Assembly: GCA_964373255.1 (NCBI GenBank)
Contig: CAYJTG010000003.1
Span: 25,759 to 89,758 of the forward strand
Length of the DNA stretch: 64,000 bases
Direction of reading: 5' to 3'
Origin: an uncultured archaeon
GTDB taxonomy: Archaea > Aenigmatarchaeota > Aenigmatarchaeia > GW2011-AR5
Shown here: piece after piece, positions 14,227 to 43,848 of the stretch
Layout: every line of letters begins with the position of its first letter
How positions within the stretch are numbered: the stretch's first letter is position 1
Position numbers and translations under genes: made by a program
Notes under the pieces: generated by a model
What the model was told of the DNA's origin: nothing
The model's database searches: none
The model's input: the letters and a program-made list of their open reading frames with translations, nothing else

Positions 14227-16101
14227 TCAGAAACCGAAAATGATTCTTATTATGGTAAGCAGCGACGACGATATGACATTTATTGGATCTGACATTTGTC
14301 CAACAGAAAGCCCAGTAATTACTTCATAACTGCTTTCTGTATCGTTCTGCGATTGGTTTGTGATTTCCATCTCTGTTGTTGGAAGTGACGTATTAAGTTC
14401 TGTGTCATTTATAGCATTAATTACTGGGGGTTCTGCCACATTTATTTCGTTTGTTATATCATTATTTTTGTCGTCAACCCTTACTCGTACACGAAACTTA
14501 TAAACGCCTTTTTCTGTGGTGTTTTCTATCTTGTTCTTAAGATAAAGTATTGTAGACGCTAATGTTGAAAGTTCAACACTCTGTTTATTTGCATCATAAG
14601 TGCCCTTCCACTTATTTTCATTGTTGTCTAACCCTAGTGAAACAGGATTATTGTCTTTGAAAACATACGAGTAAACTGTGAAATTCTTCTGGCTTGTGAA
14701 ATTGTTTGTGATTCTTACGGTTGTTGTAAACTCCTCTTCTATGTGCACGTTTGGCGGGTAGTTTACAACTTCGTACAAGGACACGTTTTGCTTCACAAAT
14801 ACTGTTGTAGTGCCCCCACCACCACCGCTTGTGCCAGAGCTGGATACTATTGTAGTTGTCTTGCAGACCGATGACGAAGACCCCTTAACGTTTATGTTTT
14901 TTGAGTCGATTGCATCAAGGCCTTCTGCAACAATCGCATAGGTGCCGTCAGAAAAAGTGCCGTCACAATTTGATTTTAATTGAACTGGAACTTTCAAGTT
15001 GTACGGTGTGAATTTATTTTCCAGATTCATATTTGTTATATCGCTGATCTTGTTGCCTGTGCTGTTTTTCACGAAAATATCGATAGACGTTTTTGAAGTA
15101 TTGCCCTTGTAAATACTTATAGAAACTTCTGCGGTTTCACCGTATTTTATCTCGTTATCCGATCCCACGTTAACGGATGTTATATTTATGGATGAATCAA
15201 ACTGTGGGCTTGAGCCTTTTACAACGATAACCTTGCTCGCATTATTATTACTCACGTCTGTATCATTGCATCCCGTACTGACAAGGGAAGCTTTGATATA
15301 GTAAGCTTCTGATCCTGTAATGCCATCAGGCGTCCACTGCCTGCCTATTGTTTTTGTGCACAGAAGTTCTGATGTTACTTCCATCGGTGATTTTACGAAA
15401 TTTCCAAAAATATCTTCGACAAAATAGTTTACCGTAGAATTGTGCATGGTATTATTGCACGTTGTATCGTTAACGATTAAATTAAAATTTATTGTCCCTA
15501 TTTCATAAACAACTGAATTTGTGCCTATCGAAAGCTCAAGGTTGCATATAAGTGTGGTGTTTTGCTGAGTCGTATTGGTTTGATTGGTTTGCTGGTTAAT
15601 TTTTGGCTTGTTAACAGCGCCAGGCGTGGGCTCGCATTCTGCAAAGCTGCTGTTGATTATGCAAATGGTTTTACCTTCGGCCGAAACAGGCGAGTATGTT
15701 ATATTGTCAAAAATTTCTGTAGAATTTTTTATCCAGACCGTTTCATTTGCAGAATTCAGAAGGTCTGACCACGAACTGTCTATCACTGGCCCTGTATAAT
15801 TAGAATAATCAGCAAGAAATAAAATCGCGTCCTGTGCAATAACCAAATACCCTCCGGGATTCAAAATCATTGTTCCTTGCCCACCATTTGCAGGCGGCGG
15901 ATTCAATGTATGATCAGTATTACCCGTGTTGAGTTTCCATCCTGTAAGATTGTAGATATCTGAGTCATTATTGTATACTTCTACCCATTCGTGTCCTGTG
16001 TCCGTCCCGTTTGGATTGTGCATTATTTCGTTTATAGAAATTCCATACGATACACTAGAAGAAACAGCTAAAATAAAAATGTACAACAAAATTTTATGCA
16101 T
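14227..16101 (-). CDS. Secreted surface protein. N-terminal signal peptide, lamin-tail (LTD) domain, Asn/Thr-rich region with many N-glycosylation sequons, and a C-terminal TM anchor.
   Basis: Signal-like N-terminus MHKILLYIFILAVSSSVSYG. LTD-like 'ISINEIMHNPNGTDTGHEWVEVYN...GWKL'. More than 25 N-x-S/T sequons. Hydrophobic C-terminus 'LLTIIRIIFGF'. Confidence 0.7.
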   Translation of the reverse strand: MHKILLYIFILAVSSSVSYGISINEIMHNPNGTDTGHEWVEVYNNDSDIYNLTGWKLNTGNTDHTLNPPPANGGQGTMILNPGGYLVIAQDAILFLADYSNYTGPVIDSSWSDLLNSANETVWIKNSTEIFDNITYSPVSAEGKTICIINSSFAECEPTPGAVNKPKINQQTNQTNTTQQNTTLICNLELSIGTNSVVYEIGTINFNLIVNDTTCNNTMHNSTVNYFVEDIFGNFVKSPMEVTSELLCTKTIGRQWTPDGITGSEAYYIKASLVSTGCNDTDVSNNNASKVIVVKGSSPQFDSSINITSVNVGSDNEIKYGETAEVSISIYKGNTSKTSIDIFVKNSTGNKISDITNMNLENKFTPYNLKVPVQLKSNCDGTFSDGTYAIVAEGLDAIDSKNINVKGSSSSVCKTTTIVSSSGTSGGGGGTTTVFVKQNVSLYEVVNYPPNVHIEEEFTTTVRITNNFTSQKNFTVYSYVFKDNNPVSLGLDNNENKWKGTYDANKQSVELSTLASTILYLKNKIENTTEKGVYKFRVRVRVDDKNNDITNEINVAEPPVINAINDTELNTSLPTTEMEITNQSQNDTESSYEVITGLSVGQMSDPINVISSSLLTIIRIIFGF

Positions 16102-16146: not shown

Positions 16147-16974
16147 TTATATGGGTTTCCATTCTTTTATTGCCTTTTCATAGCCGTGCGGCGTGCCGAC
16201 GTCAAAAAGGAAGCCGTCATGAACAAATCCTGTAACACTTCCCTTGCTGCTCAGTATAGAAAACAGCTTGTCGGTCATGACCTTCCCGTTTGGCACGTAT
16301 CTTAGTGCTTCAGGCTCAAATATGTAGAAGCTCGCGTCTATTAGATTGGTAGGCGCGTTCAAAGGCTGGTCAATAAATTCTACCACCTGGTTGCCGTGCA
16401 TTCTCACAACACCGTATTCTGTAGGATCGTTCGAATTTGAAAGTAGGATGGTTGCAAGTGCGCCCTGTTTCCTGTGGAAATTAAATAGCTCTGGTATGTT
16501 AGGATTTATGAGCGTATCTACATTCAAGACCGCAAATGTGTCGTGTATTTTTCCCCTAAGAAGCCGCAGAGCCCCCATCTTGCCGAGAGGCTTTTGTTCT
16601 ACAATATAATCTATCTTAACGCCAAATTTGCTGCCATTACCAAAATGTTCAAATATCTTTTCGTGGTTCTCTCCTACAGTAAGAATGATATTTCTTATGT
16701 CAAATTCCTTTAACATGTTTATCTGGTGCTCCAGAACAGGGCGGCCTTTGATCGGTATAAGCGCCTTAGGTATCTCGTATGTTATTGGTCTCAGCATCGC
16801 ACCGTCGCCACCGGCCATTATTACAACTGTATTCAAGTCTGTTTTTGCAAGGCCTCTCATGATAAGTTGTTCAACCGCGTGTGACCTGTTTCTTACATCT
16901 TCATGGTCGATTGTCTTGTCCAGTTTCCTTAGTATGTCAGATTTTATTGTTATAGTAACGCGCTTAAGAGTCAT
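16147..16974 (-). CDS. Fusion protein: N-terminal ribbon-helix-helix (CopG/Arc-like) domain joined to a sugar-1-phosphate nucleotidyltransferase domain.
   Basis: The first ~45 aa 'KRVTITIKSDILRKLDKTI...RNRSHAVEQLIMRGL' fit a beta-alpha-alpha RHH. It is followed by the nucleotidyltransferase motif 'VVIMAGGDGAMLRPITYEIPKALIPIKGRPVLEHQI'. Confidence 0.65.
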   Translation of the reverse strand: MTLKRVTITIKSDILRKLDKTIDHEDVRNRSHAVEQLIMRGLAKTDLNTVVIMAGGDGAMLRPITYEIPKALIPIKGRPVLEHQINMLKEFDIRNIILTVGENHEKIFEHFGNGSKFGVKIDYIVEQKPLGKMGALRLLRGKIHDTFAVLNVDTLINPNIPELFNFHRKQGALATILLSNSNDPTEYGVVRMHGNQVVEFIDQPLNAPTNLIDASFYIFEPEALRYVPNGKVMTDKLFSILSSKGSVTGFVHDGFLFDVGTPHGYEKAIKEWKPI

Positions 16975-17092
16975 TCATACCACGTATCCACAAAAGTATG
17001 AAAAAGTATGAAATTCCAAACTATTTAAACGTGACATCTATGTTTATTGTTGTGGTTTCTGTGGAATTCAATCGACCACAACCACTAAATCT

Positions 17093-17100
17093 TTAAAATT
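17093..17100 (+). promoter_or_regulatory. Candidate archaeal TATA box (TTTAAAAT) for the heptose-kinase gene. The 16975-17120 region is shared by divergent promoters.
   Basis: The A/T box lies about 21 nt upstream of the ATG at 17121. The RHH-nucleotidyltransferase gene is transcribed divergently from the same region. Confidence 0.3.
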
Positions 17101-17120
17101 ATGTTACCAATGGTGTCACT

Positions 17121-18155
17121 ATGATAATAAGAAGCAGGTCTCCTGTCAGAATATCATTCGGCGGAGGCGGAACAGATATACCGCCTTACTGTTTTGAAAG
17201 GGGCGGCTGCGTAGTGTCGGCAACAATAAACAAATACTCCTATGCAACCCTGCAGAGCCGAGATGACCAAAAAATATTCGTAGAATCTGTCGATTTCCTG
17301 AAAAGCACGGTATTTGGAAATATGTCTGAAATCGTCTATAACAATGAGCTTGATGTCCTGAAAGCTGTAATAAAAAATCTCAATCATACAGGCATGGGCG
17401 CTAATATATGGATGAGAAGTGATGTTCCGCCGCGTTCTGGGCTGGGGTCTTCGGCGGCTGCGTTCGCAGCCATGATAGGTCTTTTCAATCACATGCGTGG
17501 TGAGAAGGCAATGACGAACTATGAAATTGCCGAGCTTGCCTACAAGTTAGAGAGGGAAGAGCTGAAAATAGGCGGCGGGTACCAGGACCAGTATGCAACT
17601 GTATTTGGCGGCATAAATTATATTGAGTTTGCAAGCAACGGTATAAAGGTAAATCCGATAAAAATGAAGAAAGATCACGTACTGGAGTTAGAAAAGCACC
17701 TTGTTATTGCCTACGCTGGCGAAAGGCAGGCAAGCGGCGACATAATTGAGGCTGAAAAGAAGGGTTACAAGGAAAATAAAGAAGTCTTTGAAGCGCTTGA
17801 AAAAACAAAACAAATTGCGCAGGAAATAAGATACGCGATAATAAGGGGTGATTTTGAGAGGCTCGGTGCATTGCTGCATGAATCATGGGAAACAAAGAAA
17901 AAACATTCTGCCTTGGTGTCGCACCAACGCATAAATGATATATACGATCTGGCTAGAAAGAATGGCGCCATAGGCGGTAAAGTGTCTGGTGCAGGTGGCG
18001 GAGGGTTTATGTTTTTCCTGTGCGAGCCTAACAAGGAACATAATGTTGTTGCTGCTCTGGAAAAAATCGGTGCTAAACCTGTCAACTTCACATTCGATTT
18101 CGATGGTCTGCAGACATGGGAGCCTGCAAACCGTACCCCCATGATTTTGAATTAA
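17121..18155 (+). CDS. hddA: GHMP-family sugar kinase, likely D-glycero-alpha-D-manno-heptose-7-phosphate kinase (HddA-like).
   Basis: GHMP motif 'PPRSGLGSSAAAFAAMIG'. C-terminal 'GGKVSGAGGGGFMFFL'. Sits in an operon with gmhA and the gmhB-hddC fusion. Confidence 0.65.
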   Translation: MIIRSRSPVRISFGGGGTDIPPYCFERGGCVVSATINKYSYATLQSRDDQKIFVESVDFLKSTVFGNMSEIVYNNELDVLKAVIKNLNHTGMGANIWMRSDVPPRSGLGSSAAAFAAMIGLFNHMRGEKAMTNYEIAELAYKLEREELKIGGGYQDQYATVFGGINYIEFASNGIKVNPIKMKKDHVLELEKHLVIAYAGERQASGDIIEAEKKGYKENKEVFEALEKTKQIAQEIRYAIIRGDFERLGALLHESWETKKKHSALVSHQRINDIYDLARKNGAIGGKVSGAGGGGFMFFLCEPNKEHNVVAALEKIGAKPVNFTFDFDGLQTWEPANRTPMILN

Positions 18156-18172
18156 AATGAAGAAGTGATGTT

Positions 18173-18748
18173 ATGAACTACCTAGAGGAAAAAATGAATC
18201 TTCATAAAAAAATGGTTGATTTATTGGATTTGAAATCAATAGAAAGGGTTGCGGATGCGATATCAAAATGCTATAGAAGCGATGGCAAACTATTGATATT
18301 CGGCAATGGCGGTTCTGCGGCCGATGCGCTTCACTTTGCTGCGGAGTTCGAGGGACAGCTATCATCTGTAGACAAAAATCGGAAAGCGCTGCCAGCCATA
18401 ACACCGTCTAATTTGTCTGCATTGACAGCCATAAGTAATGATTATAATTATGATACTAGCTTTCTCCGTTTTGTTCAAGCTAATGCAAGGTCTAGTGATG
18501 TTGTCGTAGGCATAAGTACAAGTGGCAATTCAAAAAATGTGATTAACGCAATAAAAGAAGCCAAGAACATTGGTGCAACAACAGTTGGCTTTACCGGTTA
18601 TGACGGCGGTCAGTTAAAAGACTTTGTTGACATCCTTATGAATGTTCCTGCTTCTAATGTTTCAATAATACAGGAAGGCCACATTATAGCTTATCATCGC
18701 GTATGTGCTCTTGTTATAAAGGAATTGTTTGGTTATGATGCATTATGA
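18173..18748 (+). CDS. gmhA: Phosphoheptose isomerase (sedoheptulose-7-phosphate isomerase), SIS domain.
   Basis: 'LIFGNGGSAADALHFAAEF' and 'VVGISTSGNSKNVINAIKEAKNIGATTVGFTGYDGG' closely match GmhA signature regions. Confidence 0.85.
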   Translation: MNYLEEKMNLHKKMVDLLDLKSIERVADAISKCYRSDGKLLIFGNGGSAADALHFAAEFEGQLSSVDKNRKALPAITPSNLSALTAISNDYNYDTSFLRFVQANARSSDVVVGISTSGNSKNVINAIKEAKNIGATTVGFTGYDGGQLKDFVDILMNVPASNVSIIQEGHIIAYHRVCALVIKELFGYDAL

Positions 18749-20013
18749 AGCCTGCAGTTTTTTTGGACAGGGATGGTGTAGTAATTACAGCAACGCACCT
18801 AGTTACGAAAATGCAGGAAGTCGAAATAGAAAAAAATGCGCCTGACGCAATAAGAATTTTTAATGATCTTGGATTCAAGGTAATAATAGTTACAAACCAG
18901 CCGCAAGTGGCCCGCGGCCTGTGCACAGAAGAAGACGTCATCAAGATAAATAAAAATATAAAGAAAACCATGGAAAAAGATGGAGCTATAATTGATGATA
19001 TATATTTCTGCCCGCATCATCCGGAGATGCATGAAGATGTGCCGGAGTATGCAAAAAAATATCGAATAGATTGTCGTTGCAGAAAACCGAAGACAGGGAT
19101 GATATTAGAGGCGGCAAAAAAACATGATATAGATCTTTCAAAATCATTTATGATCGGTGATCGCACGGTTGATGCGATGACAGGCAAGAATGCCGGCATA
19201 AAGACAATTCTAGTAAAAACTGGCAGAGCAGGAATGGATGGCAAATACGATACTATTCCTGATCATATATGCGCCGATCTGATGGAAGCTGCAAAACTTA
19301 TCAAAAGATCAGTTACAACCAAGGCTGTCATCCTAGCTGGTGGCAAGGGCGAACGCCTGATGCCATTAACAAAGGACATACCAAAGCCGATGATAGAAAT
19401 AAGCGGCAAGCCCGTCTTGCAGCATCATATAGGACTATTGAAGAAATACGGGATAAATGAAATAATAGTCTGTGCGAGCTATCTTATCGACAAGATAAAA
19501 GACTTTTTTGGAAATGGTAAAAATTTTGGTGTGCAAATATATTATCCCGATGAGCCTGAGCAGCTCGGCACAGGTGGCGCAATAAAGAACGCAGAACAAT
19601 TTATCAAAGGCTGCAAAAATTTTATTGTATTGAATGGCGATGTCGTGACAAACATAAATTTGTCTGCATTACTTGATTTTCACGAAACTAAGGACTGTTT
19701 AGCTACAATTGTTGTTCGTAAGAGTGATCATCCGATAGACAGCGATATCGTTCAGTTGGATGAGAACAGGGTTATAAGGTATATAGGCCGTGGGCAGAAA
19801 AAGCACAAAGTCGCAAATACAGGCATAATGATATTAAAAGCTAGCATACTCGGGCACATAAAGAAGGGTGTATCGAACATCGAGACAGACGTGGTGTTTC
19901 GCATGCTTGATGACTATAAAATTTGTGCATATTTTTCCAACGATTACATAAAGGACATGGGCACTTTTGACAGGCTTGAAAAGGTCCGTAGGGAATTTTC
20001 GCTGATTTCCTGA
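18745..20013 (+). CDS. gmhB-hddC: Bifunctional D,D-heptose-1,7-bisphosphate phosphatase (GmhB, HAD) fused to D-glycero-alpha-D-manno-heptose-1-phosphate guanylyltransferase (HddC-like nucleotidyltransferase).
   Basis: N-terminal 'AVFLDRDGVV', 'CPHHPE' and 'CRCRKPKTGM', which are GmhB motifs. C-terminal 'KAVILAGGKGERLMPLTKDIPKPMIEISGKPVL', a nucleotidyltransferase motif. Confidence 0.8.
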   Translation: MKPAVFLDRDGVVITATHLVTKMQEVEIEKNAPDAIRIFNDLGFKVIIVTNQPQVARGLCTEEDVIKINKNIKKTMEKDGAIIDDIYFCPHHPEMHEDVPEYAKKYRIDCRCRKPKTGMILEAAKKHDIDLSKSFMIGDRTVDAMTGKNAGIKTILVKTGRAGMDGKYDTIPDHICADLMEAAKLIKRSVTTKAVILAGGKGERLMPLTKDIPKPMIEISGKPVLQHHIGLLKKYGINEIIVCASYLIDKIKDFFGNGKNFGVQIYYPDEPEQLGTGGAIKNAEQFIKGCKNFIVLNGDVVTNINLSALLDFHETKDCLATIVVRKSDHPIDSDIVQLDENRVIRYIGRGQKKHKVANTGIMILKASILGHIKKGVSNIETDVVFRMLDDYKICAYFSNDYIKDMGTFDRLEKVRREFSLIS

Positions 20014-20032
20014 GCTTATAAATCTTTAGTTT

Positions 20033-20971
20033 ATGTTGATAGTTATGAAAATGCTTGTAACGGGCGGCGCGGGATTTATAGGCTCAAATCTAGCCGAAGC
20101 ACTTGTGAATGAGGGGCATGAGGTTATAGTGCTTGATAATTTCTCAATTGGCAGGGAGGCTAATCTAAAGAATGTACTAGATCATATAAAATTAGTAAGG
20201 GGCGATATAAGGGATTTTGAACTCCTGTTAAAAATCACGAAAGATATAGATGTTATATTCAATCAAGCGGCTGCATCGTCGTCACACATGTTTTTGGAGA
20301 ATCTGAAAGATGCCTTATCAGTCAACATAGACGGTTTTGTACATATCCTTAATGCCGCGAAGATTAACAACGTAAAGCGTGTTGTTTATGCATCAACATC
20401 ATCCTTGTACGGAAACAACAAGCCACCGTTAAGAGAGGATATGAAAATTGCGCCGGTAAATTTTTATGCATCATCTAAGCTTATGAATGAGCACATAGCA
20501 GCCTTGTACAGCCTTGAATACGGACTGGAGACAATAGGCCTTCGTTACATGAGCATATACGGTCCACGCGAAGAATGCAAGGGACGATTCGCAAACATGG
20601 TAAGCCAGTTCTTGTGGTCGATGCAGAAAAACGAGCAGCCGATAATTTACGGCGACGGCATGCAAACAAGAGATTTTACATTTGTAAAAGACGCTTGCAT
20701 GGCAAATATACTTGCAGCAACTGCCAAGAAGGGCATGAATGATATATTTAATGTTGGCACAGGCAAGTCGACAGATCTTAACAGGCTTGTAGAAATCCTT
20801 AATATGAAATTAAACAAAAGCGTAACACCAAAATACATATCAATGCCTATAAAGAACTACGTATTTTCACAGATGGCGGACATTGAAAAAATCAAGAACG
20901 CATTCGGCTATGAACCTAGATCTACGCTGGAAAAAGGTATCGATGAAATGCTTTCCACAACTCTCAAATGA
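20033..20971 (+). CDS. NAD-dependent NDP-sugar epimerase/dehydratase (extended SDR).
   Basis: 'LVTGGAGFIGSNL' Rossmann motif and a YxxxK context. 312 aa. Start likely at about 20045 (MKMLVTGG). Confidence 0.7.
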   Translation: MLIVMKMLVTGGAGFIGSNLAEALVNEGHEVIVLDNFSIGREANLKNVLDHIKLVRGDIRDFELLLKITKDIDVIFNQAAASSSHMFLENLKDALSVNIDGFVHILNAAKINNVKRVVYASTSSLYGNNKPPLREDMKIAPVNFYASSKLMNEHIAALYSLEYGLETIGLRYMSIYGPREECKGRFANMVSQFLWSMQKNEQPIIYGDGMQTRDFTFVKDACMANILAATAKKGMNDIFNVGTGKSTDLNRLVEILNMKLNKSVTPKYISMPIKNYVFSQMADIEKIKNAFGYEPRSTLEKGIDEMLSTTLK

Positions 20972-21656
20972 GTCCTATCCTTAGCTTAATTATGTTTATC
21001 AGCATTCTCGGCCCGTACTTAAGCTGAAACTTTGAATATTCACCATGCTTCCATATGACAGGTGCCTCAAATATTCTGCAGCCCTTCTTTTTCAGTCGCC
21101 AGAGCAATTCGACATCAAACTCGAATCCATACAGTTTCATATTATTCAGCACGCCTTTAGCTGCTTCTTTGCGAAAGACTTTTGCCCCGCATTGTGTGTC
21201 TTTTACATCAAGATTAAATAGTGTATTAACTATCACGTTGAACGTCTTGCTCGCTATGCGTCTACGCAGTGGCTGCTTTATCGAAATAATAGAATCTTTT
21301 GTGCGCCTAGACGCAATAACACAGTCATAAGATTTCAGGAATTCAAATAATTTGACATACTCTTCTGGCGTTATCGGTTCATCAGCGTCCATGAAGCCTA
21401 CAAGATTGCCGCTGCATCTGCGCAGGCCTTCAACAACGGCTTTCCCTTTTCCCATCCTTTTTTGCTTTATGAGCTTTATTCGCTTGTTATTTTTGGATAT
21501 TTCGCTTACAATCTTCGGCGTGTTGTCTATTGATCCATCAGAAACGACGATTATTTCGTAATCTTTTTTAGTTTTCGCAAGAAAACTGGAATAATCCTCT
21601 AGTGCTTTTTGTATTCTTTTTTCCTCATTAAAAGCAGGTATAACGATCGAATACAT
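20964..21656 (-). CDS. GT2-family glycosyltransferase, dolichyl-phosphate hexose synthase (DPM1-like) type.
   Basis: 'YSIVIPAFNEE', then 'VVSDGSIDNT' and 'MDADE' (DxD). 230 aa and soluble. Confidence 0.78.
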   Translation of the reverse strand: MYSIVIPAFNEEKRIQKALEDYSSFLAKTKKDYEIIVVSDGSIDNTPKIVSEISKNNKRIKLIKQKRMGKGKAVVEGLRRCSGNLVGFMDADEPITPEEYVKLFEFLKSYDCVIASRRTKDSIISIKQPLRRRIASKTFNVIVNTLFNLDVKDTQCGAKVFRKEAAKGVLNNMKLYGFEFDVELLWRLKKKGCRIFEAPVIWKHGEYSKFQLKYGPRMLINIIKLRIGLI

Positions 21657-21659
21657 AAT

Positions 21660-22763
21660 CTAAACCACGCTTTCGTATATTCTGATAAGTTTCTGTGCAA
21701 CAATTTGTTTATTGAATTTTTTTTGTATATGTAAACTTCCATATTTTCCGATTTTTTTATTTAGAGAATCGTCATTTAATAGTATATTTATATGTTCCTT
21801 CATTTGATCCCATTTCCCATAATCAACTAGAAAACCTGTCTTTTTATCCATAACAACTTCTGGAATACCACCTACCTTAGTAGAAACAACTGGTGTACCA
21901 CACGACTGTGACTCTGCTAGAACTCGGGAGAATGCCTCATACCTCGATGGAAGAATAACTACAGAAGCTTTATTATATAATTCAACAAGCTTAGAAAGAT
22001 TAATGTTTCTCAGGAATTCTATGCGTTTGTTTTTTCTAAGTTTTTTTATTGAATCTAACAAATGTCTGTCATACGAATTGCCAACAAAAAGTGCTTTTGT
22101 ATCTTTGTCGTCATTCAAAATTTTTTCTACAATATTGAATGCAATATCGGCACCTTTGTCTTTTGTAAAATTGCTCACAAATAGTATAAGTTTCTCTTTT
22201 TTTATATTTTTGTTTCTTTTGAAAATATTTATATCAACGATATTCGGAAGGATTTCCATATTTTTCAATGTTGCACCAATTTTGAGAAGTTGCATTCTTT
22301 CGTATTGTGTATGCGGCAATATTTTATCAGAAAATCTCAACAAAGGCAAACCCTGCGTCAAATGATAAGATACAAACTGAAGCCATCTAGAAAACCCATA
22401 AATAGGTGGGTGAAAATAGGGTCCAAATATATGCGGTACATTTAATTTTTTTGCTGCTAATAATCCAGCCGTTGCAGGAAAATATCCGTAGTGATGAGAA
22501 TGTACGATATCAAAATTTTCAGAAGCGATGGCGTTTATCATTTTTGATGAATAGTAGAAACGCCTGCCAAATAGGTGTTTTACAGGGATTCTTTTTATTT
22601 CTACATTACCTATGTTGTCTTCTAGCTTCCATCCCGTATTCCATTTTGTGAAAACTGTTATTTCATGCCCCCTTTCCGTTAGATAAGATACCAAGCCTTG
22701 ACAATAAAATGATGCACCTATAATTGATGGGTAGTACGCTGGTGTGACAAAGGCGATTCTCAT
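21660..22763 (-). CDS. GT4-family glycosyltransferase.
   Basis: GT-B fold. C-terminal 'E(x7)E'-like motif 'PSRYEAFSRVLAESQSCGTPVV'. Confidence 0.8.
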   Translation of the reverse strand: MRIAFVTPAYYPSIIGASFYCQGLVSYLTERGHEITVFTKWNTGWKLEDNIGNVEIKRIPVKHLFGRRFYYSSKMINAIASENFDIVHSHHYGYFPATAGLLAAKKLNVPHIFGPYFHPPIYGFSRWLQFVSYHLTQGLPLLRFSDKILPHTQYERMQLLKIGATLKNMEILPNIVDINIFKRNKNIKKEKLILFVSNFTKDKGADIAFNIVEKILNDDKDTKALFVGNSYDRHLLDSIKKLRKNKRIEFLRNINLSKLVELYNKASVVILPSRYEAFSRVLAESQSCGTPVVSTKVGGIPEVVMDKKTGFLVDYGKWDQMKEHINILLNDDSLNKKIGKYGSLHIQKKFNKQIVAQKLIRIYESVV

Positions 22764-36000: not shown

Positions 36001-36912
36001 TTAATTCTGACTAAACCACTTTATAGTCTTTATAAGTCCTGTTTTCAGATCTGTTTCTGACTGCCATTTAAGGATTTTTTTTGCCTTTGATATATCTGGC
36101 TTTCTTTTGATAGGGTCATCGGTTCCAATTGGGGTGAATATTATATTAGATCTGGATTTTATGATCTCCTTTATTTTTTTTGCAAGATCAATTATTCTTA
36201 TTTCTGAAGGATTTCCTATATTGAACACATCATTATATTTTGAGAACGCTGCTGCGCATATACCATCTACAGTGTCTGTAACGTAACAAAAGCTTCTTGT
36301 CTGCTTTCCGTCACCGTAAATTGTAATGTCTTTGTTACCCAGTGCTTGTGTTATAAAATTTGGCATAACCCTGCCATCGTCTTTTCTCATTCTTGGACCG
36401 TAAGTATTGAATATTCGTAGTATGCAATAACTTATATTGGATTTTTTGCAAAATGTGTATGTAAGTGCCTCGCCAAATCTCTTTCCTTCATCGTAGCAGC
36501 TTCGCTCGCCAACAGGATTTACATTACCATAGTATGTTTCTTTCTGTGGGTGTTCCTTTGGGTCGCCATAAACCTCAGAAGAAGACGCATAAACAAACCT
36601 TGCGCTATTTTTCTTTGCAAGATTTAGCATATTATAAGTACCAAAAGAATTTGACATCATTGTTTCGATTGGCATATTCTTATAAAATTTCGGCGACGCG
36701 AGGGATGCAAGATGAAATATTATATCCACTTTTATATTTGCCTTAATCGGCTTTGATACATCAGCCTTAATTATATTTATTCTACCGTCTAGATTTGCCT
36801 TCGATCCAGAAAGAAAGTTATCGATTACAGTAACATCGTGCCCTTCATTATATAACTTTTCGCAAAGCCAAGATCCTATAAATCCTGCCCCGCCGGTTAC
36901 CAAGCATTTCAT
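36001..36912 (-). CDS. uxs: UDP-glucuronate decarboxylase (UDP-xylose synthase)-like SDR.
   Basis: 'CLVTGGAGFIGSWLCEKL', 'SSSEVYGDP...YDEGKR' (YxxxK). 303 aa. Confidence 0.7.
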   Translation of the reverse strand: MKCLVTGGAGFIGSWLCEKLYNEGHDVTVIDNFLSGSKANLDGRINIIKADVSKPIKANIKVDIIFHLASLASPKFYKNMPIETMMSNSFGTYNMLNLAKKNSARFVYASSSEVYGDPKEHPQKETYYGNVNPVGERSCYDEGKRFGEALTYTFCKKSNISYCILRIFNTYGPRMRKDDGRVMPNFITQALGNKDITIYGDGKQTRSFCYVTDTVDGICAAAFSKYNDVFNIGNPSEIRIIDLAKKIKEIIKSRSNIIFTPIGTDDPIKRKPDISKAKKILKWQSETDLKTGLIKTIKWFSQN

Positions 36913-37730
36913 TTATCATTCTCCTCCTCCATAGGCGGCGGGATTATAAGCCCTTCGTAGGCCATCTTGTTGGCATTTTCGTAAGCCTCGATAGTGCTGA
37001 TATCTATCCAGAATGGGAGCTTTCTCAAAAATCCACATAATTTATTTTCTGCTGCGAGTTGTGGAAAAAGCGAGTTCTCTACTTTGGTTTTTTCTCTAGG
37101 TAAAAGATCAAAAACATCTGATACCTCGATTATATAGTAGCCGCCATTCGCGAATTTCGATGGCGCTTCTGGTAATTTTGGCTTTTCGACAAATTTTTCT
37201 ATAAGATCGAACCCATTTACATTCTTTATTTTTGCTATTCCGAATCTGTTTAATTCATTTTCAGGAGCTTCGAACAATAGAACTGTCGAAGAAACGCCAA
37301 GTTCTTTTCTGGCACGATTGTGGTATTCTACCATTTCGTAGAGATTAAAATTGGTAAGGTTATCGCCATAAACAACAATTATTTGGCCTTTTCTGATGCC
37401 GAGTTCCTCTAGTATGTATCTTATGTCGCCTGCTGTTTCTTTTTGTGGAACAGGTATTGTTTTTATAGGAATTTTATAGCCTGCATTCTTAAGATAAAGA
37501 TCAATGCACATGCCATGTATGTGCGACAGTGTACGCTCCTGTATATCATCGCCGATTGTACCTGGTATAGCAACAATTATTTCGTCTACACTTGCATTGA
37601 CGCTCTTAATAACCCAGTCAATCATAGGGCTTCCTTTTATCGGAAGCAGTGGTTTTGGTATGCCATACGTGAGTGGCCTTAATCTCGTGCCTTTTCCAGC
37701 AGCCAAAATTATCGCTTTCATTTCTACCAA
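36909..37730 (-). CDS. Sugar-1-phosphate nucleotidyltransferase, UDP-glucose pyrophosphorylase-like.
   Basis: 'KAIILAAGKGTRLRPLTYGIPKPLLPI'. Confidence 0.75.
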   Translation of the reverse strand: MVEMKAIILAAGKGTRLRPLTYGIPKPLLPIKGSPMIDWVIKSVNASVDEIIVAIPGTIGDDIQERTLSHIHGMCIDLYLKNAGYKIPIKTIPVPQKETAGDIRYILEELGIRKGQIIVVYGDNLTNFNLYEMVEYHNRARKELGVSSTVLLFEAPENELNRFGIAKIKNVNGFDLIEKFVEKPKLPEAPSKFANGGYYIIEVSDVFDLLPREKTKVENSLFPQLAAENKLCGFLRKLPFWIDISTIEAYENANKMAYEGLIIPPPMEEENDK

Positions 37731-39019
37731 CAGACCCCTTCAAAGTTTTTTACCTTATCTTTGTTTAGAACCTTTCGCCCTTCAATAATTATGCTATTTC
37801 GCATAACAGAAAAATCTTTATCGGTCAAATTTTTAAACTCGTCCCATTCTGTAAGAATAAGGCACGCATCTGCGCCATCCAGCGCATCCGAACAGCTTTT
37901 TGCATACTTTATATAAGAATAGATTTTTTTGAAATTTTTAGACGCCTTTGGATCGTAAGCCACTATTTTGCACTTGTTTTTCTTTAATTCTGATACTACG
38001 TCTATAGCAGGTGAATCTCTTATGTCGTCTGTATTCGCCTTAAATGCCAAACCAAGCACAGCTATAGTTTTTCCATCGAGATTTGGGATTTTATTTCTTA
38101 AAATATCGACAATAGTTACCCTCTGGTATTTATTCAATTTCAGGATACTATCTAGAATACCAGCTTCATAGCCTAGTTGTTTTGCCTTGCTATAGAGTGC
38201 ATTTATATCTTTTGATAAGCAGCTGCCGCCGAACCCTACGCCTGCACTCAGGAACATATCGCCAATGCGCTTATCATATCCTACACCACGCGCGACATCG
38301 TATGTATCTATGCCTAGTTTTTTGCAGATATTTCCGATTTCATTTATCAGTGATATCTTTGCTGCAAGAAATGCATTGGAAGCGTACTTGACCATCTCTG
38401 CTGTTTTTACGCTCGTAATCATTACATACGCATTAAAGTCTCTATACAACGCTTTAACTACAGATTTTGTTTTTTCGTCGCTAACCCCAATAACTATTCT
38501 GTCGGGGTAAAGAAAGTCATTTATTGCTGAGCCCTCACGAAGAAATTCTGGATTAGAACATACGCCAAAATCTTTTCCGCTTTTCTTGTGCGAAAATTTT
38601 TCCATGATAGGCACTATAATTTCTTCCGTTGTGCCTGGTATAACACTACTTTTGATAACTATGACATGAAAGCCTTTTTTATCTTTTATAATTGAACCTA
38701 TTTGCTTGGAAACATTTTCAACATATGATGTGTCAACGTGATTATCATTCCTGGACGGCGTCCCAACGCAAATAAATGTTATAGAACTGTTGTTAACCCC
38801 ATACTTGAGGTCTGTTGTTGCTTTTATCAGGCGTGCCGTCTTTTTGAGCGCATCTTCTAAGCCTGATTCCGTAATCGGAGGCTTTTTTGCATTTATCTTA
38901 TCTATCTTCTTTTTATCTACATCAACGCATATTATGTTATGCCCTTTTAATGCAAAACCTACACCAGTACAAAGGCCTACATAACCTGCACCAATAATTG
39001 ATATACGCATGGCAACCAT
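37724..39019 (-). CDS. ugd: UDP-glucose 6-dehydrogenase.
   Basis: 'ISIIGAGYVGL' and the catalytic 'GFGGSCLSKD' Cys motif. 431 aa. Confidence 0.9.
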   Translation of the reverse strand: MVAMRISIIGAGYVGLCTGVGFALKGHNIICVDVDKKKIDKINAKKPPITESGLEDALKKTARLIKATTDLKYGVNNSSITFICVGTPSRNDNHVDTSYVENVSKQIGSIIKDKKGFHVIVIKSSVIPGTTEEIIVPIMEKFSHKKSGKDFGVCSNPEFLREGSAINDFLYPDRIVIGVSDEKTKSVVKALYRDFNAYVMITSVKTAEMVKYASNAFLAAKISLINEIGNICKKLGIDTYDVARGVGYDKRIGDMFLSAGVGFGGSCLSKDINALYSKAKQLGYEAGILDSILKLNKYQRVTIVDILRNKIPNLDGKTIAVLGLAFKANTDDIRDSPAIDVVSELKKNKCKIVAYDPKASKNFKKIYSYIKYAKSCSDALDGADACLILTEWDEFKNLTDKDFSVMRNSIIIEGRKVLNKDKVKNFEGVCW

Positions 39020-39066: not shown

Positions 39067-40008
39067 CTATACATTATTGCGCCAATATCCAAGCATATCT
39101 TTAAGTGTTTTGTCTATAGGTATAACAGGCGCCCATCCTATGGACTTGATTTTTGTGTTGTCACCGACAAATATCGGATCCTCCAGAATGCGCAATTTTT
39201 TCGGGTCCTTCTTCACCTTCACCCTCGCATCAGAAAATGAAACCAATTTATTTAGCAAATCTCCGACCTTGTATCTATTCCCTGTGCAAACATTGTAAAC
39301 GTCTCCAAATACGCCTTTCTTGGCAAGCAGCCATACGGCCTTTACAGCATCTCTTACATCGGTATAATCTCTTATACCTTCTAAATACCCGACGTCTGCT
39401 GCATTTCTTTTATTATTCTCTACCTCTGCAATCATCTTTGAAAAATCGGAGCATGCGTCATTGGTCTTTTTTGGCCCTGTTACATTGAAAAATCTGGCGC
39501 GAATTATTTTCATCTTGTACGCATGCCAGTAAAGATAAGCAAGCATATCAGTTCCTATTTTACTGACTGCGTAGGGGGAGGATGGCCTAAATTCTTTTGT
39601 TTCTTTGACTGGTATTTCATTTTCGTAATTGAGTCCATACTCTGCAGAAGAGCACGCAACGATTATTATTGGATTAATATTAGCCGCCCTGACAGCTTCA
39701 AGCAAATAAAGCGTGCCTATTATATTTGTTCTGAACGTATTTTCAGGATCCTTCCAAGATGGCATAACGAAGCTCTGCGCAGCTAGATGAAATATATAAT
39801 CGGGGGCAACCTTTTTGATTATTCTTTTCAACTTTTGTTTATCTGTTATATCGCAAACTTCAAGTTTCAGGTTTTTTTCAATATGTGATATGTTTTTTAT
39901 ATTTTCGTTTTTGTGAAGTATTCCATAAACTCCAATATTTTCTGATATAAGCAAATCAGCCAGGTGCGACCCTATAAACCCACCTATGCCAGTTATCAAT
40001 GCTTTCAT
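39067..40008 (-). CDS. NDP-sugar 4,6-dehydratase-family SDR. GDP-mannose / GDP-heptose 4,6-dehydratase-like.
   Basis: 'ALITGIGGFIGSHL', 'SSAEYG', 'SPYAVSKIGTDMLAYLY'. 313 aa. Confidence 0.6.
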   Translation of the reverse strand: MKALITGIGGFIGSHLADLLISENIGVYGILHKNENIKNISHIEKNLKLEVCDITDKQKLKRIIKKVAPDYIFHLAAQSFVMPSWKDPENTFRTNIIGTLYLLEAVRAANINPIIIVACSSAEYGLNYENEIPVKETKEFRPSSPYAVSKIGTDMLAYLYWHAYKMKIIRARFFNVTGPKKTNDACSDFSKMIAEVENNKRNAADVGYLEGIRDYTDVRDAVKAVWLLAKKGVFGDVYNVCTGNRYKVGDLLNKLVSFSDARVKVKKDPKKLRILEDPIFVGDNTKIKSIGWAPVIPIDKTLKDMLGYWRNNV

Positions 40009-42888: not shown

Positions 42889-43848
42889 ATGAAGAATGAA
42901 AAAATACTTATCACAGGCGGCGCCGGTTATTTAGGGTCGGTTTTAACAGAACACCTTGTCAATCTTGGCTATGACGTAGCAGTTTTAGATAATCTTATGT
43001 ACAACCAAAACTCACTCCTGCACCTGTTTCACAATAAAAACTTCCGGTTCATAAATGGTGATGTAAGGGACACGGAATTATTGAAAAAAATAGTCCCGAA
43101 TTTCGATTTTATTCTCCCTTTAGCAGCAATAGTTGGCGCAAACGCATCAGAACGCGATAAAGAACTTACCAAATCTGTTAATTATGAAGCAATTGCGTCC
43201 ATCAATAAAATAAGAGACCAGAAAAGACAGAAGATAATTTTTCCTACAACAAACAGCGGTTACGGAACTAAAAGCAGCGACATTTATTGTACAGAAGAAA
43301 CACCACTAGAACCTATATCGATTTATGGCACAACAAAGGTCGAGGCAGAGAGAGAGCTGTTGAAATCTAACAATACAATAACGCTTAGATTAGCCACATG
43401 CTTCGGGTTCTCGCTAAGAATGAGGATAGATCTCTTGGTAAATAACTTTGTATACAAAGCGATAAAAGACGGCTACATTGTACTATTCGAAAAGAACTTC
43501 AAAAGAGATTTTCTGCACGTTCGTGATGCTGCCAGATGTTTTGTTCATTGTATAGAGAATTTTGAATCGATGAAAAATGAACCCTATAACGTAGGCTTGG
43601 AAGATGCAAACCTGTCAAAAGAGGAACTATCACTAAAAATTAAAGACATACTAAAAAGTACTGCTCAAAAAGACCTTTACATACACGCGTCAGAAATAGG
43701 TAAAGACCCCGACAAAAGAAACTACATTATTTCAAACAAAAAAATAATGTCTGCTGGATTTAAGTGTAGATATTCTTTGGAAGACGGAATAGAAGAACTA
43801 ATAAAAGGGTATGAACAGCTTTTTGATAAACACTACACAAATTTTTGA
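42889..43848 (+). CDS. NAD-dependent NDP-sugar epimerase/reductase (SDR).
   Basis: 'ILITGGAGYLGSVL', 'YGTTKVEAE' (YxxxK). Confidence 0.68.
   Translation: MKNEKILITGGAGYLGSVLTEHLVNLGYDVAVLDNLMYNQNSLLHLFHNKNFRFINGDVRDTELLKKIVPNFDFILPLAAIVGANASERDKELTKSVNYEAIASINKIRDQKRQKIIFPTTNSGYGTKSSDIYCTEETPLEPISIYGTTKVEAERELLKSNNTITLRLATCFGFSLRMRIDLLVNNFVYKAIKDGYIVLFEKNFKRDFLHVRDAARCFVHCIENFESMKNEPYNVGLEDANLSKEELSLKIKDILKSTAQKDLYIHASEIGKDPDKRNYIISNKKIMSAGFKCRYSLEDGIEELIKGYEQLFDKHYTNF

Follow-up and report, generated by a model that had tools for sequence, protein, structure and literature searches.

A candidate operon for a nucleotide-activated alpha-heptose in a DPANN archaeon

Introduction

A sugar kinase, an isomerase of the GmhA type and a phosphatase fused to a nucleotidyltransferase lie side by side in the DNA studied here, which raises the question whether an archaeon makes an activated heptose and, if so, for which glycan. 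We analysed the whole 64,000-nucleotide stretch carrying these genes (the window). The reading that we favour, and consider likely, is that positions 17121-20971 form a four-gene operon with five activities, leading from sedoheptulose-7-phosphate to an alpha-heptose, activated by a nucleotide and destined for a protein N-glycan, in a DPANN archaeon, probably one of the Aenigmarchaeota.

An earlier note on this DNA regarded heptose as essentially unknown in archaeal glycans. That view has to be given up, as the N-glycan of Thermoplasma acidophilum contains D-glycero-D-galacto-heptose (PMC11407970, PMC12448462). Functional NDP-beta-heptose enzymes from archaea have also been reported (PMC11461863). 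In the literature consulted we found no archaeal heptose glycan other than that of T. acidophilum, and no experimental test of the pathway or of the fused enzyme in archaea.

Operon structure, related loci and host

The three open reading frames described earlier at 17121-20013 were recovered at exactly these positions, co-oriented and tightly packed (Table 1): the kinase and GmhA genes are separated by 17 nt, and the GmhA and fusion genes overlap by 4 nt. The intergenic region upstream contains a TATA-like box (TTTAAAAT, 17092-17099) 21 nt 5' of the ATG at 17121, a tandem direct repeat (two copies of AAAAGTATGA, 16992-17011) and, at 17049-17082, the inverted repeat GTTGTGGT/ACCACAAC; these may act as promoter and operator elements. 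In the divergent gene on the other side of this region, the nucleotidyltransferase domain (NTP_transferase, 9.6e-36) begins at residue 50 and is preceded by a ribbon-helix-helix-like extension of about 49 residues (N-terminus MTLKRVTITIKSDILRKLD...). Among NCBIfam models, mannose-1-P guanylyltransferase fits it best (147 bits, under the cut-off). The gene is kept at the same position in loci L083 (63% identity, with a weak RHH_1 Pfam match) and L085 (45%), and its product may provide a further NDP-sugar, act as a regulator of the shared intergenic region, or both.

The contig is archaeal, as indicated by its flanking genes for Orc1/Cdc6, the PolD small subunit, PolB, CDC48, type II methionine aminopeptidase and archaeal SecD. 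Its closest relatives, with shared gene order, are Aenigmarchaeota MAGs, so the placement of the pathway in an archaeon was borne out. The cassette genes also occur on two independent assemblies (L001, L002), and the gene order is the same in four other archaeal contigs. The series kinase-GmhA-fusion-SDR is kept in L083, L084 and L086, and in L085 the cassette adjoins genes for transketolase, RpiB, Rpe and transaldolase, which are suppliers of sedoheptulose-7-phosphate. Domain content, catalytic residues, operon structure, cassette conservation and archaeal host are thus seen directly.

Table 1. Features of the operon and of the surrounding glycosylation island (window coordinates)
Feature	Position	Strand	Length or part	Basis or remark
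Second sugar-1-phosphate nucleotidyltransferase	16147-16974	-		divergent from operon
Divergent intergenic region	16975-17120			read from sequence
GHMP kinase, HddA-like	17121-18155	+	344 aa	ORF, GHMP_kinases_N/C
GmhA isomerase	18173-18748	+	191 aa	ORF, SIS_2
GmhB-nucleotidyltransferase fusion	18745-20013	+	422 aa	ORF, HAD and NTP_transferase domains
GmhB-type HAD-IIIA phosphatase domain	18745-19320	+	fusion residues 1-192	
Sugar-1-phosphate nucleotidyltransferase domain	19321-20013	+	fusion residues 193-422	
SDR5, epimerase-type extended SDR	20033-20971	+		same operon
Small GT2, polyprenyl-phosphate sugar synthase-like	20964-21656	-		Glycos_transf_2 3.1e-31
GT4 glycosyltransferase	21660-22763	-		convergent on operon; Glycos_transf_1 1.3e-37
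GDP-sugar 4-keto-6-deoxy reductase/4,6-dehydratase-like SDR (RMD/GMD clade)	39067-40008	-		PDB matches
Wzx/MATE-type oligosaccharide flippase	40008-41522	-		Polysacc_synt 6.1e-27
GT4, head of second plus-strand sugar-modification unit	41737-42831	+		Glycos_transf_1 2.2e-32
PDB 6VO6 homologue	42889-43848	+	full length	6.6e-103, 51% identity
GDP-L-fucose-synthase-like (GMER) 3,5-epimerase/4-reductase	43858-44811	+		NCBIfam GDPFucSynFcl 305 bits, cut-off 500
AglB/STT3 oligosaccharyltransferase, split	47183-49541	-	48354-49541 and 47183-48361	overlapping ORFs

Enzymes of the proposed pathway

The kinase contains both GHMP domains (GHMP_kinases_N 8.5e-18, GHMP_kinases_C 7.8e-16), and its best NCBIfam model is HddA, matched along its whole length at 272 bits (cut-off 600). 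A preference for galactose or mevalonate, which the earlier note had raised against its own proposal, is not what comparison with PDB sequences points to. The heptokinases 3k85 (1.2e-66), 4n3o (5.4e-65) and 4usk (1.2e-57) are far closer than fucokinase (3e-25), mevalonate kinase (about 1e-13) or galactokinase (8e-10), and the assignments as mevalonate kinase or galactokinase were rejected on these values. GmhA matches SIS_2 (9.8e-25), TIGR00441 gmhA (165 bits, cut-off 209) and, as top PDB entry, the phosphoheptose isomerase 2xbl (3.3e-41); its residues E58, Q167 and H175 align with Glu65, Gln172 and His180 of E. coli GmhA and are conserved, as is the STSGNS loop.

The third gene encodes a single polypeptide with a HAD domain (Hydrolase_like, 7.5e-16) and an NTP_transferase domain (7.7e-34). 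Like the domain matches of the kinase and of GmhA, these lie well outside what chance would give. The GmhB half scores 147.6 bits with the GmhB model NF006506 (cut-off 178), exceeds the cut-offs of the HAD-IIIA domain models TIGR01656 and TIGR01662, and matches E. coli GmhB in the PDB (3l8e, 5.6e-25). Alignment with the E. coli enzyme identifies D8/D10, T50, K114, D139/D143 and the zinc loop C89/H91/C110/C112, all of which are invariant in 15 fused homologues. In the AlphaFold model (pLDDT 91.9, pTM 0.85) there is no flexible linker, i.e. helix 179-191 leads directly into the first nucleotidyltransferase strand.

This fusion had been described as unusual; the databases indicate the opposite. 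A search gave 5960 matches at E<=1e-10, with both Pfam domains present in the best 120 of them, and both domains were found in all 150 of the best 50%-identity cluster representatives, in varying order and distributed over archaea and many bacterial phyla. The heptose pathway and its fused enzyme are common in sequence databases. The pair is also part of larger fusions, namely with GmhA (P0373), with a GDP-sugar-type SDR at the C-terminal end (P0371) and with a GT4 at the N-terminal end, nucleotidyltransferase before GmhB (P0407). In P0175 the kinase is joined to GmhA, and in P0094 the precomputed Pfam domains add transketolase domains to the pair. Such proteins connect the pair of nucleotidyltransferase and GmhB with further parts of the pathway.

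Family assignments and intact catalytic residues agree with the four activities postulated earlier, from sedoheptulose-7-phosphate to an NDP-alpha-heptose. GmhA would convert sedoheptulose-7-phosphate to the 7-phosphate of D-glycero-D-manno-heptose, the GHMP kinase would phosphorylate C1 to give the alpha-1,7-bisphosphate, the N-terminal GmhB domain would take off the 7-phosphate, and the C-terminal domain would join heptose-1-phosphate to an NTP, most likely GTP. SDR5 would then invert one stereocentre of the NDP-heptose, at C6 or C4. We infer every substrate and product of this scheme, as well as the nucleotide, the epimerised carbon and the N-glycan destination.

Alternative readings

That no heptose is made at all, with mevalonate or a different sugar as the kinase substrate and a histidinol-phosphate-type phosphatase as the HAD domain, appears very improbable to us. 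It is true that every component stays below the curated NCBIfam equivalog cut-offs (HddA, GmhA, GmhB, HddC), and that histidinol-phosphatase domain models also match the HAD half, but the kinase lies much closer to heptokinases than to mevalonate kinase and the catalytic residues of GmhA are conserved. Moreover, fusions or side-by-side arrangements of the modules GmhA, kinase, GmhB and nucleotidyltransferase recur across archaea and bacteria, and the L085 cassette stands beside pentose-phosphate-pathway genes. We give hardly any credence to a recent bacterial import or a binning or assembly chimera. Knowledge of the pathway comes mostly from bacteria, where fused homologues are frequent (Bacteroidota, Clostridia, Patescibacteria and further groups); yet archaeal informational genes stand on both sides of the cassette on one contig, the same arrangement (upstream Lhr-Metallophos-LTD included) recurs in other archaeal MAGs, and the GC content of the operon (0.40-0.42) agrees with that of its flanks. 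For the kinase, the fusion and SDR5, the nearest homologues, to roughly 50% identity, come from archaea, and a kinase phylogeny of the kind suggested earlier, a rough NJ tree without support values, grouped the kinase with Aenigmarchaeota and Altiarchaeota in an archaeal clade.

The identity of the nucleotide and the role of SDR5 leave more room for doubt. The product had been named a GDP-heptose and its enzyme a guanylyltransferase; the nucleotidyltransferase domain is there, and the guanylyl label has to be inferred, as the mannose-1-P guanylyltransferase and MurU models outscore HddC, which is the seventh-best NCBIfam match to the fusion (113.9 bits, cut-off 300). Activation by UDP, dTDP, CDP or ADP is in our judgement unlikely. 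Besides the rank of HddC, it would be in line with the best PDB sequence match, annotated as UTP-glucose-1-P uridylyltransferase, with the presence of the guanine-binding Glu in the UTP-using MurU, with the known CDP- and UDP-beta-heptoses (PMC11461863), and with an RmlD-nucleotidyltransferase-GmhB fusion (P0421) whose bona fide RmlD domain may point to other than GDP chemistry for some members of the fusion family. Nevertheless, several features argue that the enzyme probably uses GTP. Its sequence E-P-E-Q-L-G-T-G-G-A matches the guanine-binding motif EXEPLGTGGA of HddC (PMC6981941), including the Glu that replaces the Gln of U/T-specific enzymes and is kept in most of the fused homologues listed; the invariant Cys243 aligns with the uracil-binding Asn52 of MurU; and the nearest solved structures found by Foldseek are GDP-mannose pyrophosphorylases. 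Foldseek also matches the domain to HddC, with a TMt of 0.85. In PDB sequence comparisons these pyrophosphorylases (about 1e-24) stand close to MurU (4e-23) and Yersinia pseudotuberculosis HddC (2e-21). GTP is further suggested by the GDP-sugar-clade enzymes of the surrounding island, i.e. the 6VO6 homologue, the GMER-like protein and the GDP-specific RMD/GMD-clade SDR, a type that P0371 carries joined to its GmhB-nucleotidyltransferase pair. As to SDR5, we propose that it is an NDP-heptose epimerase, although a UDP-hexose or UDP-HexNAc 4-epimerase of the ordinary kind, with nothing but the operon in common with the pathway genes, is a possibility to be taken seriously, if the less likely one. 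By sequence and structure the closest proteins are UDP-GlcNAc/GalNAc/Glc 4-epimerases (1e-50, TM 0.94), above any heptose enzyme (H. pylori HldD, TM 0.87), and JGI labels its homologues 'UDP-glucose 4-epimerase'. On the other hand, each of the four archaeal loci examined has SDR5 together with the cassette (directly after the fusion in L083, L084 and L086, within the same cluster in L085), and 28 of 66 homologue clusters (contigs >=5 kb) share their longest-contig size with a fusion or kinase homologue, a figure that is only a proxy for location on the same contig. TIGR02197 heptose_epim tops its NCBIfam list (184.5 bits, cut-off 274.6), and Lys183, invariant in 121 of 121 homologues, aligns with Lys178 of E. 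coli HldD, whereas 6dnt, 10ke, WbpP and WbgU have Asn at this position.

A dehydratase role for SDR5 was rejected: the Ser123/Tyr145/Lys149 triad is present, the dehydratase acid pair is absent, and epimerase-type structures are nearest.

The glycosylation island

The gene adjoining the fusion is thus the epimerase-type SDR5, which the earlier note had overlooked; it spoke of downstream 4,6-dehydratase and GMER-like genes. Genes of these two kinds do occur in the window, but as members of other transcription units 19-24 kb away. The dehydratase-like SDR matches PDB 2pk3 (GDP-6-deoxy-D-lyxo-4-hexulose reductase, 1.6e-75) and 7us5 (GDP-D-glycero-D-manno-heptose 4,6-dehydratase, 9.6e-48), shares 45% identity with the C-terminal domain of P0371, and is a candidate for forming a 6-deoxy-heptose. 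The homologue of 6VO6, which we take to be the Campylobacter jejuni GDP-heptose C4-dehydrogenase Cj1427, had also escaped notice; it has orthologues within heptose cassettes of Nanoarchaeota (L075, 58%), Ruminococcaceae (L018, 50%) and Pseudomonadota (L079, 47%). Together with the GMER-like protein, these enzymes could derivatise GDP-heptose.

The small GT2 has weak NCBIfam matches to AglJ, PpgS and ArnC-type enzymes and an orthologue in L086 (47% identity), and it may act together with the heptose. The GT4 that converges on the operon is a candidate heptosyltransferase; in L084 and L086, too, a GT4 follows SDR5. The GT4 fusion P0407 lends this weak support, the two GT4s being only 20% identical. 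In the split AglB, a frame change is visible in the sequence. Its first ORF carries the STT3 N-terminal domain (2.1e-27), and the second has more hydrophobic segments and, in place of the WWDYG motif, the variant YWDPG. This split speaks against the reading favoured here, and so does the distance of 19-24 kb between the operon and the candidate GDP-heptose-modifying enzymes. AglB, the flippase and many glycosyltransferases lie within one island, which the split AglB closes and marks out as an N-glycosylation locus, and an N-glycan is therefore the likely destination of the operon sugar; the glycosyltransferases, flippase and AglB would assemble and transfer the glycan.

Comparison with known systems

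With the known GHMP-kinase pathway (PMC10680097) the operon shares the four activities, the enzyme folds and the order of the chemistry, including the GHMP kinase of the alpha-anomer route and the RmlA/GMPP-fold nucleotidyltransferase. It differs in its archaeal host, in the union of GmhB and nucleotidyltransferase in one polypeptide, in enzymes that all fall below curated equivalog scores, in the presence of an epimerase-type SDR and in the likely destination, an AglB-dependent N-glycan instead of a capsule, an O-antigen or a bacterial S-layer O-glycan. The NDP-beta-heptose route of HldE/HldD (PMC11461863) likewise starts from sedoheptulose-7-phosphate, uses GmhA and GmhB and ends with an SDR epimerase, and HldD and SDR5 have the YGPRE..KG..A motif in common. 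However, SDR5 and E. coli HldD share only 28% identity, the kinase is of the GHMP type and not ribokinase-like, and the nucleotidyltransferase has the RmlA/GMPP fold, not the cytidylyltransferase-like fold of HldE. From this kinase and this fold the alpha anomer is expected.

The island also resembles the C. jejuni tailoring system in its 6VO6 homologue, its 7us5-like SDR and the GMER-like gene that follows the former. The C. jejuni system modifies GDP-heptose by the C4-dehydrogenase Cj1427, C3/C5-epimerases, C4-reductases and a GDP-heptose 4,6-dehydratase. In contrast to that system, the genes here are spread over 25 kb and not gathered in a single capsule locus, and of the window ORFs scanned none was a separate cupin-type epimerase. 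The GMER-like protein is nearer to true GDP-fucose synthases (E. coli GDP-fucose synthetase, 1.5e-67) than to other 'GDP-L-fucose synthase' chains, 7m13 included (3e-56 to 2e-47 over residues 4-195). The T. acidophilum N-glycan shares with our proposal an archaeal, N-linked heptose; it belongs to another phylum, and its heptose configuration differs from that of the primary product predicted here.

The core of a probable heptose operon

The three genes assigned to a heptose pathway in the earlier note (17121-20013) coincide exactly with three plus-strand ORFs, and their domain and structure matches are far beyond chance. The kinase and GmhA genes are separated by 17 nt and the GmhA and fusion genes overlap by 4 nt. 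A TATA-like box is found 21 nt 5' of the kinase start codon, which suggests that the operon transcript is leaderless. The pathway is a known one, and the locus is a genuine archaeal example of it, well conserved and so far uncharacterised.

Features of the window discussed in the text
Feature	Position	Strand	Description
Lamin-tail protein	14227-16101	-	624 aa; lamin-tail domain, no other recognisable domain
Divergent nucleotidyltransferase	16147-16974	-	~49-aa N-terminal extension resembling a ribbon-helix-helix DNA-binding domain
Intergenic region	16975-17120		tandem repeat AAAAGTATGA x2; perfect 8-bp inverted repeat
GHMP kinase	17121-18155	+	344 aa; both Pfam GHMP kinase domains
GmhA	18173-18748	+	191 aa; Pfam SIS domain
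GmhB-nucleotidyltransferase fusion	18745-20013	+	422 aa; HAD-type hydrolase ~1-190, then NTP_transferase 193-415 (Pfam)
SDR5	20033-20971	+	312-aa extended SDR; start 19 nt past the fusion stop codon
GT4 transferase	21660-22763
Nucleotidyltransferase, UDP-glucose 6-dehydrogenase, UXS/4,6-dehydratase-like SDR	36001-39019	-	consecutive genes; SDR at 36001-36912
RMD/GMD-like SDR	39067-40008		SSAEYG motif; RMD, GMD and heptose-dehydratase clades
6VO6 homologue	42889-43848		PDB 6VO6/6VO8, 6.6e-103, 51% identity, full length
GDP-fucose-synthase-like protein	43858-44811		gene next after the 6VO6 homologue
AglB/STT3	47183-49541	-	two ORFs, different frames, 8-nt overlap (48354-48361); second ORF with YWDPG variant of the WWDYG motif
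PolB, PolD small subunit, Orc1/Cdc6	56200-61390	-	adjacent genes
Non-coding stretch	61391-61788		400 nt, upstream of orc1

The top NCBIfam model of the kinase is HddA (272.1 bits, below the equivalog cut-off of NF049969, 600 bits). Over its full length the protein matches the heptokinases of the PDB (3k85, 1.2e-66; 4n3o, 5.4e-65; 4usk, 1.2e-57). A mevalonate kinase, galactokinase or fucokinase can be ruled out, as the matches to fucokinase (3e-25), mevalonate kinase (8e-14) and galactokinase (8e-10) structures are at least 40 orders of magnitude weaker than those to the heptokinases. GmhA is best matched by TIGR00441 gmhA (165.0 bits, under the cut-off of 209.45) and by the phosphoheptose isomerase 2xbl (3.3e-41). 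Alignment with E. coli GmhA shows that the active site is kept, i.e. E58, Q167, H175 and the STSGNS loop are present; we take their E. coli counterparts to be the catalytic Glu65 and His180, Gln172 and the Ser-Thr-Ser phosphate loop.

The HAD half of the fusion scores above the cut-offs of the HAD-IIIA domain models and below those of the GmhB models (NF006506, 147.6 bits, cut-off 178; TIGR00213, 129.2, cut-off 149.6; alpha-specific NF050049, 100.1, cut-off 250), and it matches the E. coli GmhB structure at 6e-25. In alignment with E. coli GmhB the HAD motifs D8/D10, T50, K114 and D139/D143 are shared, as is the zinc loop C89/H91/C110/C112 (Cys-x-His...Cys-x-Cys), and all of these are invariant in 15 fused homologues. 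None of the kinase, GmhA, GmhB and HddC modules reaches its pathway-specific NCBIfam equivalog cut-off.

Judging from domain content, residue conservation and conserved gene order, GmhA would convert sedoheptulose-7-phosphate to heptose-7-phosphate, the GHMP kinase is predicted to form alpha-heptose-1,7-bisphosphate from it with ATP, and the GmhB domain would release alpha-heptose-1-phosphate. The predicted substrates of the HddC-like half are GTP and heptose-1-phosphate, as suggested by its context, i.e. its covalent link to GmhB and the presence of GDP-sugar enzymes in the glycosylation island (~16-49.5 kb). SDR5, the epimerase-type SDR encoded after the fusion by the fifth operon gene, would then yield an epimer of the nucleotide-heptose, and optional tailoring would be followed by glycosyltransferases, the flippase and AglB.

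Nucleotide choice of the fusion protein

The nucleotidyltransferase half is matched best by the NCBIfam model of mannose-1-phosphate guanylyltransferase (143.7 bits), followed by MurU (135.9), archaeal GlmU (129.8) and HddC (113.9). HddC is thus not the closest model, and the score falls short of the cut-off of NF049965 (300 bits). Foldseek places this half in the RmlA/GMPP-type fold (5xhw/6jq8, TMt 0.84-0.85). The loop G-G-x-G-x-R-L is present as LAGGKGERL, and EPEQLGTGGA corresponds to the HddC-type EXEPLGTGGA with its guanine-binding Glu. In Yersinia pseudotuberculosis HddC the first Glu of this motif makes two hydrogen bonds, to guanine N1 and N2, and the nucleotide specificity of HddC mutants was not switched (PMC6981941). 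Where MurU has its uracil-binding Asn52, the fused homologues have an invariant Cys, but the UTP-using MurU also has the guanine-binding Glu. Since the Glu is shared with MurU and the HddC mutants kept their specificity, single residues are only suggestive here, and GTP is favoured, not proven, as the nucleotide.

Fused heptose proteins in archaea and bacteria

The earlier note had called the fusion unusual, which is contradicted by its frequency. Among 8000 candidates 5960 were homologous at E<=1e-10, and in the best 120 clusters almost every protein is ~420 aa long with both domains. In a 50%-identity library 1720 representatives were found at E<=1e-30; the best 150, from archaea and many bacterial phyla, all contain both halves. 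The GmhB-nucleotidyltransferase order seen here occurs in DPANN archaea, Saccharibacteria/Patescibacteria, Chloroflexota and Planctomycetota. The reverse order is found in Bacteroidota, Clostridia, Spirochaetota, Elusimicrobiota, Verrucomicrobiota, Gastranaerophilales and others, and these nucleotidyltransferase-GmhB genes usually adjoin those of a GHMP kinase and GmhA. The NCBI name of the fused family is only 'HAD-IIIA family hydrolase'.

Some homologues carry further domains. These include nucleotidyltransferase-GmhB-GmhA proteins (P0373, ~630 aa, many representatives), GmhB-nucleotidyltransferase with an RMD-like SDR (P0371) or with transketolase domains (P0094, precomputed Pfam), GT4-nucleotidyltransferase-GmhB (P0407), RmlD-nucleotidyltransferase-GmhB (P0421) and kinase-GmhA (P0175). 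Such multi-domain fusions make a strong case for a role of the nucleotidyltransferase in the heptose pathway. A Foldseek search found no solved structure spanning both halves of the fusion. In the AlphaFold model (pLDDT 91.9, pTM 0.85) helix 179-191 leads directly into the first nucleotidyltransferase strand, and the model suggests that two domains with consecutive predicted steps are rigidly joined.

SDR5, a putative NDP-heptose epimerase

Three kinds of activity have to be weighed for SDR5, i.e. 4,6-dehydratase, 4-epimerase and heptose 6-epimerase. The first of these had been proposed in the earlier note for the downstream SDR. 4,6-dehydratases have an Asp/Glu acid/base pair beside the catalytic Ser/Thr, as in TDEVYG or STSELYG. 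SDR5 has STSSLYG, conserved as S-T/S-S-S across its family, and YASSK, i.e. the acidic pair is missing, and its structural neighbours are 4-epimerases, which rules the dehydratase out.

The best matches of SDR5 are UDP-GlcNAc/GalNAc/Glc 4-epimerases (sequence 1e-50, predicted fold TM 0.94), and these rank before HldD by sequence as well as by fold; the H. pylori HldD follows at TM 0.87. The top NCBIfam model, on the other hand, is the heptose 6-epimerase TIGR02197 (184.5 bits, missing the cut-off of 274.6). SDR5 is 28% identical to E. coli HldD and shares with it the motif YGPRE..KG..A. Residues S123, Y145, K149 and K183 are the same in all 121 homologues. Lys183 aligns with Lys178 of E. coli HldD, whereas 6dnt, 10ke, WbpP and WbgU have an Asn at this position. 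We take Lys178 to be a second conserved Lys beside the Ser/Tyr/Lys triad, with a debated role as a base; our literature search returned no account of its role. We infer from these similarities that SDR5 is an NDP-heptose epimerase, acting either at C6 like HldD or at C4 like its fold neighbours.

The SDR5 family is coherent (120 clusters, none below 56% identity), and its named members are archaeal. The gene directly follows the fusion in three related loci (L083, L084 and L086), and in a fourth, L085, it is the last gene of a cluster that has cassette and pentose-phosphate genes interleaved. For 28 of 66 SDR5 homologue clusters (contigs of at least 5 kb) the longest contig was equal in size to that of a fusion or kinase homologue, which is only a proxy for a shared contig. 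Bacterial heptose cassettes contain other SDR types, without the SDR5 motif.

Candidate tailoring enzymes and the glycosylation island

The island contains GT2 and GT4 transferases, two PMT_2 (GT-C) proteins, methyltransferases, a UDP-glucose dehydrogenase/UXS-like set, a Wzx-type flippase and a terminal split STT3/AglB. The split of AglB may be genuine, with an enzyme in two parts, or may result from a frameshift or an error of sequencing. Three island proteins are relevant to GDP-heptose tailoring. The 6VO6 homologue is named after a structure which we presume to be Cj1427, the GDP-heptose C4-dehydrogenase, and which its depositors titled 'putative sugar-nucleotide epimerase/dehydratease'. 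Cj1427 is described as oxidising GDP-heptose in an alpha-ketoglutarate-dependent reaction (PMC10680097). Its assignment as Cj1427-type is based on full-length similarity and on association with heptose genes, as orthologues lie within heptose cassettes at one locus each of a Nanoarchaeota (L075), a Ruminococcaceae (L018) and a Pseudomonadota (L079) member. The GDP-fucose-synthase-like gene follows directly. The RMD/GMD-like SDR matches the GDP-4-keto-6-deoxy-mannose reductase of A. thermoaerophilus (1.6e-75) and the GDP-D-glycero-D-manno-heptose 4,6-dehydratase 7us5 (1e-47), and shares 45% identity with the SDR domain of the P0371 fusion.

Downstream 4,6-dehydratase-like and GMER-like genes, from which a 6-deoxy-heptose had been proposed, are present, but they are 19-24 kb distant from the operon and in other transcription units. 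The 6VO6-like, GDP-fucose-synthase-like and RMD-like genes make further modification of GDP-heptose in the island plausible, possibly to 6-deoxy-heptose, and they indirectly support GDP as the nucleotide. Oxidation at C4 with the 6-hydroxyl retained is at least as likely as the 6-deoxy route.

Two other candidates were rejected as heptose enzymes or left weak. The GT4 transferase is only 20% identical to the fused GT4 domain of P0407 and is not its orthologue, so its assignment as a heptosyltransferase stays weak. The SDR of the 36001-39019 gene set is read as UDP-xylose-synthase-like, outside the heptose route, from the company of a nucleotidyltransferase and UDP-glucose dehydrogenase. We note that this set resembles a UDP-glucuronate/UDP-xylose branch of the glycan island, and that orthologues of the SDR (47% identity) are found near bacterial heptose cassettes (L019, L052).

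Host, synteny and evolution

The contig encodes Orc1/Cdc6, the PolD small subunit, PolB, CDC48, type II methionine aminopeptidase and archaeal SecD; these genes identify it as archaeal. The nearest named homologues of the fusion, kinase and SDR5 come from MAGs of Aenigmarchaeota, Woesearchaeota, Nanoarchaeia and Altiarchaeota. One Aenigmarchaeota MAG (L083, GCA_026397375.1) shares the whole neighbourhood, i.e. Lhr helicase (75% identity), Metallophos, LTD protein, nucleotidyltransferase, heptose operon and PMT-type glycosyltransferase. Going by the named homologues and this shared gene order, the host most probably belongs to the Aenigmarchaeota (DPANN).

In a rough neighbour-joining tree without support values, the kinase belongs to a diversified archaeal clade of Aenigmarchaeota and Altiarchaeota, and the kinases of bacterial nucleotidyltransferase-GmhB cassettes fall outside this clade. 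The GC content of the operon (0.40-0.42) equals that of the flanks (0.39-0.48), and the glycosyltransferase-rich core (22000-44000) is at 0.31-0.38. Neither this tree nor the comparison of operon and flank GC gave any sign of a recent bacterial import of the operon. The variable, AT-rich part of the island is suggested to have a different history.

In L083 (5456-6415) and L084 (5428-6423) the kinase is 34-37% and GmhA 74-77% identical to those of the window; in L086 (5415-6404, 6408-6995) the values are 62% and 37%. The cassette thus appears to be a mosaic in which modules are replaced within a fixed gene order. In an archaeal MAG (L085, 8235-13091) the cassette is interleaved with a split transketolase, RpiB, ribulose-phosphate 3-epimerase (Rpe) and transaldolase genes, which we read as a dedicated supply of sedoheptulose-7-phosphate. 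A toxin-antitoxin-like small gene pair (UPF0175 / DUF3368) is inserted among these genes.

Heptoses in archaeal surface glycans

NDP-heptoses are innate-immune agonists in animals. Bacteria are known to use the GHMP/alpha heptose route (PMC10680097, PMC9798254), and archaeal NDP-beta-heptose enzymes of the HldE type were reported to be functional (PMC11461863). The earlier view of heptose as essentially unknown in archaeal glycans is overstated, since the N-glycan of one archaeon, Thermoplasma acidophilum, contains it (PMC11407970, PMC12448462). A search of the available papers found no report of the GHMP route in archaea or of the fused enzyme. JGI labels the archaeal kinases heptose-7-phosphate kinases, and the NCBI names of the kinase, fusion and SDR5 are generic.

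It is possible, if on the whole rather doubtful, that DPANN archaea (Aenigmarchaeota, Altiarchaeota, Woesearchaeota, Nanoarchaeota) commonly put heptoses of the GHMP/alpha route on their surface proteins, and that the archaeal-specific SDR5 is a new GDP-heptose epimerase, with a 4-epimerase fold and an HldD-like Lys, whose product has no described biosynthetic route, e.g. GDP-L-glycero-alpha-D-manno-heptose or GDP-D-glycero-alpha-D-talo-heptose. The 6VO6-like, GMER-like and RMD-like enzymes would then provide several heptose isomers for one N-glycan. 

If the predicted pathway is correct, a large archaeal group, uncultivated and mostly episymbiotic, would regularly have heptose in its cell-surface glycans, and heptose would no longer be a bacterial speciality with a single archaeal exception. 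The surface glycans of DPANN cells are candidates for host recognition. One characterised GmhB-nucleotidyltransferase fusion would correct thousands of annotations, and the conserved SDR5, which like the 6VO6-like and RMD-like tailoring enzymes had been missed or misdescribed before, could be tested as a source of a new GDP-heptose isomer.

Other features of the window

The L083 orthologue of the divergent nucleotidyltransferase gave a weak match to the Pfam family RHH_1. The protein may be an enzyme-regulator fusion that controls both transcription units. The gene of the lamin-tail protein is conserved beside the cluster in both L083 and L086, and its product is a possible surface protein and glycosylation target. 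At Rfam gathering scores no structured RNAs were found in the window. The non-coding stretch upstream of orc1 could contain a replication origin.
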